A stretch of 64,000 bases of DNA. Origin: Albugo candida. Lineage: Eukaryota. The stretch covers positions 372,001 to 436,000 of the forward strand of contig JBDOQK010000007.1 in NCBI GenBank assembly GCA_040437565.1, given 5' to 3'. The notes under the pieces were generated by a model. It saw nothing but the letters and a program-made list of their open reading frames with translations, searched no databases and was not told where the DNA came from. The translations under genes and the position numbers were made by a program. Positions 55,475 through 56,505 of the stretch are shown in pieces; within the stretch, counting starts at the first letter, position 1; each line of letters starts with the position of its first letter.

Positions 55475-56505
55475 ATGCTTCGAAGCTTTTATCGCCATAT
55501 ATCGTCAGATGTTGGTTTGATAGCTCGCCAATCAGCAAAATTTCTGCGTCCGTCAATTGATCCCACGCTGAAATGCTTACAGCTAGACGGAAGAGCTTAT
55601 TTAATTCCGACAATAAGCTTGGTACGAGAGCATCTTGGCGATCCAGTTCAATCTCTTCATCCAAAGCTTCATTCGTGTGAAAGTACACCTGTAGTACTAG
55701 ACCTGCGCGGAGTCTCCAGCGACGGTAAAATTCACTTTTAGCGGTCATCGGAAATAATAAACCTTTGAATTCTGTAGGATCGCCGCATTCTCAGAGTATA
55801 AAGAAGCACGAATTGCGATCAAAGATAGCAAGCCTAGAGGTGAGGTTCACCTTTTCCGATGGATATGATGCTGAGGTGTTATTATAGTCAAATGGATACA
55901 AAACAGTAGGAGTAACAAATGCATGTGATCAGGCCAAACGTGTGGCACTCCAACTAGACCTCCCGTCGTTCATAACGACGAATGCATCCGGAATTGTACA
56001 TGACGTGGGTTCCAACGCACTTCCAAGCTCACGCAATGGTAGTGATAGTCACACGCAACAGTCCAATGAAATCCTTGTCAACACTCTCGATGTCAACACG
56101 GAATTTGGCAATCCTTTTTCGAATCCACCTATGGTAATCCAGAGTTGTGTTCGGTCGGGCCAGCAAGTCTATGCAAAGTCGCGATCATTAGTTGTATTAG
56201 GAAATGTGAATTCTGGAGCAGAAGTGATGTCTGATGGAGATATATCGATATTTGGAGCATTTAAGGGTCGAGCATTAGCCGGTATTACTGGTCATCGAGA
56301 AGCTCGTATTACTTGTGGATGCTTTGATGCCGAATTAGTTTCTATTGCTCACCATTTCACGACGTGTGATGGAGCGGCATTTTCCAATTCCATTGGAGCA
56401 AACAAGTCAAGCCAGGTTTGGTCAGAATTACGGCTGCATCAGCCAACAAGTATATTTCTAGATCTGGAAAGCTCTGAACTGATTTTCAAATCCAGCGTTG
56501 GCTAA
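55475..56505 (+). CDS. minC: Septum site-determining protein MinC homologue, nucleus-encoded, likely mitochondrial; exons 55475-55724, 55778-55839, 55888-56505 (309 aa)
   Basis: C-terminal MinC beta-helix signature VRSGQQVYA...LVVLGNVNSGAEVMSDGDISIFGAFKGRALAG...ARI.C..FDAELVSIA; N-domain-like PVVLDL and GYKTVGV...LDLP; two GT-AG introns keep the frame. Confidence 0.92.

Follow-up and report, generated by a model that had tools for sequence, protein, structure and literature searches.

A spliced nuclear gene for a two-domain MinC, probably of the mitochondrial type, in the oomycete Albugo candida

We analysed a window of 64,000 nucleotides from the Albugo candida genome (GenBank assembly GCA_040437565.1, contig JBDOQK010000007.1, positions 372,001 to 436,000 of the forward strand) and found that it contains a gene for MinC, the coding region of which lies at 55475-56505 of the window. 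MinC is an inhibitor of FtsZ polymerisation. A. candida thus has a nuclear two-domain MinC gene. The evidence collected here makes it probable that this gene was inherited vertically within the oomycetes and that its product falls into the clade formed by the mitochondrial-type MinCs of eukaryotes, where it presumably acts as an FtsZ inhibitor. The initial annotation of this DNA, made from the letters alone, had proposed a nuclear, intron-containing MinC with two domains that was not a contaminant, and all of this has stood; the division system to which it was assigned is one that was already known.

The gene consists of four exons and has one intron in the 5' untranslated region (UTR) and two in the coding sequence (Table 1). 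When the three coding exons are joined, the spliced coding sequence is 930 nucleotides long and encodes 309 amino acids, with exons 1, 2, and 3 coding for 83, 20, and 205 residues, respectively. It begins with the ATG at 55475, and the in-frame TAG at 55469-55471 excludes an extension of the coding sequence further upstream. Residues 1-36, which make up the N-terminal extension, and the beginning of the MinC N domain are encoded by the start-codon exon. The three-exon model giving a 309-residue protein, which had been proposed before, is thus borne out by the splice borders and by the transcript contig described below.

The MinC gene is transcribed and spliced. The 1544-letter contig of sequencing run X1 (depth 103) aligns with the stretch in four colinear pieces and skips exactly the intervals 55725-55777 and 55840-55887, the two introns for which an RNA check had been proposed, as well as an intron of 56 nucleotides at 55407-55462. 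Meanwhile, a contig of run X9, 25,229 letters in length, runs through the entire compared stretch colinearly, without any joint, and keeps all three introns. Runs X5 and X6 showed no joints, each of them covering parts of the stretch only. None of the listed runs is on record as RNA and their kinds are guesses; we read X1 as cDNA because its contig is spliced, and X9 as genomic DNA. The transcript support for splicing comes from one contig of one study. As the X1 contig reaches 310 letters further upstream of 55300, the 5' UTR is several hundred bases long. The 56-nucleotide intron of the 5' UTR had not been part of the initial annotation and is seen in the spliced X1 contig only.

The public protein of this gene has a different 5' end. 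The record P0001 ("unnamed protein product [Albugo candida]", 252 residues) is identical to our model over exon 2 and all 205 residues of exon 3. Its initiator Met is read from exon 1 in a frame other than ours, and it requires an extra intron within 55462-55723, where the X1 contig stays colinear. It has neither the N-terminal extension nor the PVVLDL block, and the first strand, conserved as L-x-G-R-x-Y-L-x-P-T, is missing too. Meanwhile, exons 1-2 of the 309-residue model are identical to the Phytophthora nicotianae protein at 45 of 98 aligned residues and, across the 17 other oomycete MinCs compared, at 31-46 residues in alignments of 80-102 positions. Because exons 1-2 fit the 17 oomycete MinCs and the X1 contig contradicts the intron of P0001, we prefer the 309-residue model: it is better than the public one, the 5' end of which is wrong. 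The practical gain is that the longer model, the splicing of which has transcript support, recovers the N domain in its conserved form, together with the likely presequence. It should be noted that the X1 and X9 contigs show strain differences from the window at 55519, 55609, 55637, 55709-55710, 55739, 56310, 56635, and 56654, and that the pair at 55709-55710 turns Gly into Lys, matching P0001.

The Albugo protein has both MinC domains. Exon 3 alone matched the Pfam family MinC_C (PF03775) with 93.8 bits (E 7.4e-27), above the cut-off of 33.2 bits, so the profile search that had been proposed for this domain gave a clear answer. It also matched the NCBIfam equivalog TIGR01222 with 105.7 bits (cut-off 95.25), and all ten of its NCBIfam matches were MinC models. 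A profile built from nine eukaryotic MinCs found four distinct Protein Data Bank (PDB) sequences (6riq, 5xdm, 4v02, and 1hf2), all of them MinC, and these matches were confined to the C domain. Of the C-domain motifs named in the initial annotation, RSGQ lies at residues 193-196, and the GRALAG block is kept. The R, G, and Q of RSGQ are invariant in all 15 aligned MinCs, and each of the 18 columns that are invariant across these 15 eukaryotic and bacterial proteins, GRALAG included, is retained in Albugo. In E. coli, the RSGQ surface of the C domain takes part in MinD binding.

The N domain was recognised at the profile level. For this, Albugo residues 1-135 were compared with residues 1-105 of E. 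coli MinC in a local profile–profile alignment, which joined Albugo 33-134 with E. coli 4-100 at a probability of 98.1% (E 1.4e-13). The global hhalign comparison was not used as evidence because such an alignment is forced. The claim of an N domain in the initial annotation, with its PVVLDL and GYKTVGV blocks present, therefore stands, although exon 1 by itself did not reach Pfam MinC_N; indeed, neither exon 1 nor exon 2, each taken alone, matched any Pfam family.

The fold of the family was examined using the AlphaFold2 model of the P. nicotianae orthologue. The mean predicted local distance difference test (pLDDT) value of this model is 61.9, with 86-91 in the C domain, 60-81 in the N domain, and values below 50 in the extension and the linker. 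Superposition on known MinC C domains gave template modelling (TM) scores of 0.85-0.87 (6riq_A 0.87, 5xdm 0.86), and the N-domain structures 4l1c_A and 3ghf gave TM scores of 0.61 and 0.60, respectively.

After the PVVLDL strand of the N domain, the domain that faces FtsZ, the protein has a strictly conserved insert of about 10 residues with the pattern S-x-D/N-G-S-P-H (window 55712-55810, residues about 80-95). All eight of the named stramenopile MinCs have the insert, as do 2 of the 17 relatives without an organism label. It was found in none of the 20 bacterial MinCs and in none of the three other named eukaryotic ones (Malawimonas and two EukProt proteins). One could speculate that it is a regulatory or partner site added by eukaryotes, which ties the inhibitor to host control, and that the Albugo MinC might work with an incomplete Min set; we regard this as rather doubtful.

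The 36 residues that precede the first conserved strand comprise six Arg/Lys, two Asp, no Glu, and six Ser/Thr, giving a net charge of +4, and an 18-residue window within the extension has a hydrophobic moment of 0.63. Extensions of 12-52 residues, alike in composition, are present in other eukaryotic MinCs. Judging from these residues, the extension likely fits a presequence for the mitochondrial matrix, with import as its putative consequence.

Of the 182 candidates in the protein search with exon 3, 66 had an E value of 1e-3 or less, the best being P0001 with 100% identity over exon 3. Next came proteins that are named MinC or contain MinC_C, from Pythium, Phytophthora, Plasmopara, Peronospora, Hyaloperonospora, Bremia, Saprolegnia, Achlya, and Thraustotheca; bacterial MinCs ranked after the oomycete ones. 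The oomycete orthologues already carry the name MinC in public records. The profile search gave 2485 matches, and the 120 listed among them include Ectocarpus, Aphanomyces, and P. infestans, together with the UniRef entry "Mitochondrial MinC" of Malawimonas californiana (P0210) and a second EukProt protein.

For the careful tree, 47 rows and 268 columns were used. The alphaproteobacterial MinCs were taken from plasmid records, and the gamma- and betaproteobacterial ones from genome loci. L032 was left out of the trees, the Firmicute L123 was left out of the careful tree (branch 9.7), and of L005 and L022 only the C-terminal 255 residues were used. Among 301 Pseudomonadota genomes, 106 had a PF03775 match, and the loci L084-L113 from these genomes were also left out of the trees. 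It was observed in addition that, in the named Alphaproteobacteria found (Rhizobium, Sinorhizobium, Shinella, Paracoccus, Thioclava, Marinovum, and Pseudoroseomonas; L114-L120), minCDE is carried by large plasmids or chromids, and that, among 354 plasmid records with a MinC match, 152 belong to Rhizobium and 80 to Sinorhizobium.

In this tree, Albugo joins Pythium, Phytophthora, and Hyaloperonospora with a support of 100/99, and the Saprolegniales form a clade of their own (100/100), the branching order of the oomycete proteins following that of the organisms. All eight named stramenopile rows fall, together with 14 rows without an organism label, into a set of 22 (96/89). At a wider level, 28 rows (11 named eukaryotic and 17 without an organism label) are separated from the 19 named proteobacterial MinCs at 100/98, and six of the seven alphaproteobacterial MinCs form a clade of their own. 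The quick tree, rooted on the very long Firmicute branch, gave the same groups. Because Albugo sits inside the oomycetes and apart from the named Proteobacteria at 100/98, a recent transfer into the oomycetes appears unlikely. The phylogeny proposed in the initial annotation as a check on mitochondrial inheritance has thus placed the protein with eukaryotes and not inside a bacterial clade, while an alphaproteobacterial sister group or origin is neither supported nor rejected.

We propose that the basic, hydroxylated extension of ~36 residues would direct the import of the protein into the mitochondrial matrix. The C-terminal beta-helix domain would dimerise, and its RSGQ-bearing surface may bind membrane-bound MinD; the N domain would keep FtsZ from assembling anywhere but at the division plane, and MinE would drive the turnover of MinD. 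We infer the import, the presence of the MinD, MinE, and FtsZ partners in the A. candida genome, and the activity of this MinC.

Several points weigh against the reading of a vertically inherited, mitochondrial-type MinC. The RNA nature of run X1 is a guess, its status as cDNA being argued from the spliced contig itself, and exon 1 alone does not match Pfam MinC_N. The extension holds two Asp residues, and its case as a presequence is one of composition. Strictly taken, the eukaryotic clade consists of the 11 named rows, the 17 rows joined to them having no organism on record. The Albugo branch is long (0.96 versus 0.17-0.39 in Phytophthora, Pythium, and Hyaloperonospora). Neither tree fixes the bacterial sister of the eukaryotic MinC group, and the best 80 bacterial loci, found by a scan with the MinC profile in which the two peptide patterns used introduce a bias, comprise 62 from Gammaproteobacteria, 14 from Betaproteobacteria, four unclassified ones, and none from Alphaproteobacteria. 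Finally, when residues 1-168 of an Accumulibacter MinD served as a query for longer proteins, no oomycete was named in the best 120 of 1939 matches. These 120 look bacterial, with 59-98% identity to the query, and say nothing either way; two of them bear labels linked to eukaryotes (an Apophysomyces record and a EukProt entry, 79-80% identity).

The lack of a named oomycete MinD among these matches, the long Albugo branch, and the conserved stramenopile-specific insert in the N domain would all suit a MinC that was retained in the reduced genome of this obligate biotroph without the full set of FtsZ, MinD, and MinE, or with a changed job, the protein then acting at another place or on a different target. 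We consider this unlikely: the residues invariant in the 15 MinCs (among them R, G, and Q of RSGQ, and GRALAG) are all kept, the gene is spliced and expressed, and an orthologue is kept in all sampled oomycete orders. A bacterial MinC gained by stramenopiles or oomycetes through horizontal transfer, rather than a relic of the mitochondrial ancestor, has poor prospects as well. The oomycete proteins stand together with those of Ectocarpus, Malawimonas, and two EukProt proteins against the 19 named bacteria at 100/98, the order inside the oomycetes is that of the organisms, and the coding sequence has two spliceosomal introns. What would speak for such a transfer is that the best bacterial matches among the 80 loci are gamma- and betaproteobacterial and not alphaproteobacterial, and that the alphaproteobacterial MinCs branch as a clade separate from that of the eukaryotes. 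Since the protein is short and the tree does not settle the bacterial backbone, the absence of an alphaproteobacterial sister is weak evidence.

A MinC of the plastid (cyanobacterial) type, left over from a photosynthetic ancestor of the stramenopiles, seems very improbable. Ochrophyte relatives do have plastids, and the trees were built without any cyanobacterial MinC; on the other hand, all 76 classified loci among the best 80 bacterial ones are proteobacterial, and Malawimonas, which has no plastid history, is found in the same group. In addition, PMC3499364 places heterokont MinC and MinD in a cluster with non-cyanobacterial prokaryotes. As for bacterial contamination of the assembly, to which nothing but the bacterial family name points, its probability is practically nil. 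Three GT..AG introns are removed in the transcript contig, the neighbours on the same contig are exclusively eukaryotic, and orthologues occur in every oomycete genome listed. Contamination, which had already been argued against from introns and neighbours, is therefore ruled out by the spliced X1 contig and the eukaryotic genes around the locus. Thus, we retain the reading of a nuclear mitochondrial-type MinC, inherited vertically within the oomycetes, as the probable one.

The coordinates of the gene parts and of the neighbouring genes are collected in Table 1. Other flanking frames encode an NTE-patatin protein with a cyclic nucleotide monophosphate (cNMP)-binding domain, a WD40 protein, and a uDENN domain beside DENN. 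Just past the end of the X1 contig, at 56775-56810, there are three tandem copies of the 10-nucleotide unit gttcactgta. The window also has eight scaffold gaps of exactly 100 N (8395-8494, 25130-25229, 31353-31452, 35374-35473, 37934-38033, 39220-39319, 45388-45487, and 59578-59677), one of which lies inside the open frame 58755-59966 adjoining the STT3 gene.

Table 1. Parts of the A. candida MinC gene and its neighbours, in window coordinates
Feature	Coordinates	Strand	Remarks
DENN-domain gene	51456-54703	-	divergent from MinC
5' UTR exon	55300-55406	+	record 1 of X1 covers 55300-55405 (its letters 311-416)
5' UTR intron, 56 nucleotides, GT..AG	55407-55462	+	skipped by the X1 contig, kept in the X9 contig
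Start-codon exon (coding part 55475-55724)	55463-55724	+	X1 contig colinear from 55462 to 55723
Intron, 53 nucleotides, GT..AG, G+C fraction 0.32	55725-55777	+	skipped by X1 and not by X9
Exon, 62 nucleotides	55778-55839	+	codes for the insert specific to stramenopiles (…GSPH…) and for the beginning of the next helix
Intron, 48 nucleotides, GT..AG, G+C fraction 0.42	55840-55887	+	skipped by X1 and not by X9
Last coding exon	55888-56505	+	rest of the N domain, low-complexity linker, MinC C-terminal domain, stop codon
3' UTR, minimum extent	56506-56690	+	X1 contig ends at 56690
STT3 oligosaccharyltransferase gene	57183-58727	+	flanking open frame
Gamma-tubulin complex component (GCP) gene	61104-63882	+	split over three open frames

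Mitochondrial division by FtsZ and Min proteins is already known from other eukaryotes, and stramenopiles are reportedly named among the lineages in a PNAS abstract of 2015. An ancestral mitochondrial division system of FtsZ with MinC, MinD, and MinE is described as widespread in eukaryotes (Leger et al. 2015, as cited in PMC7050145), and Vieler et al. 2012 (PMC3499364) describe proteins of Nannochloropsis that resemble MinC and MinD and are targeted to the mitochondrion, as well as similar sequences of Ectocarpus. The statement of the initial annotation that nucleus-encoded mitochondrial Min components occur in protists is therefore in print in these sources. Our literature search found nothing specific to oomycetes on MinD, MinE, or FtsZ. 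An FtsZ–MinCDE division system in this parasite would have no counterpart in the mitochondria of its host plants. However, plant plastids keep relatives of FtsZ, MinD, and MinE according to PMC13650779, and these would complicate selective targeting.

The Albugo protein has much in common with bacterial MinCs such as those of E. coli, Pseudomonas (6riq), Aquifex (4v02), and Thermotoga (1hf2), namely the C-terminal beta-helix domain with RSGQ and GRALAG (the Phytophthora model is 43% identical to 6riq_A) and an N domain that is homologous at the profile level. Unlike them, it is encoded by a gene that has introns and lies outside any minCDE operon, and it carries the extension of ~36 residues, the N-domain insert, and a linker of ~60 residues. 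With the mitochondrial MinCs of other protists it shares nuclear encoding, an N-terminal extension, both MinC domains, and a position together with P0210 in the 100/98 split, whereas the stramenopile proteins add the insert of ~10 residues, which Malawimonas and P0061 do not have, and their linker is longer and acidic or of low complexity. As for the heterokonts, the Ectocarpus MinC (P0202) belongs to the same 96/89 set and has the GSPH insert in common with Albugo, and the Albugo protein is 36-51% identical to other stramenopile MinCs. In contrast to Nannochloropsis and Ectocarpus, Albugo is a non-photosynthetic obligate plant parasite. The only new points of this study are the corrected gene model, the 5' UTR intron, and the conserved stramenopile-specific insert of the N domain; in kind, the Albugo MinC is nothing new and is an ordinary member of the mitochondrial division system already described.
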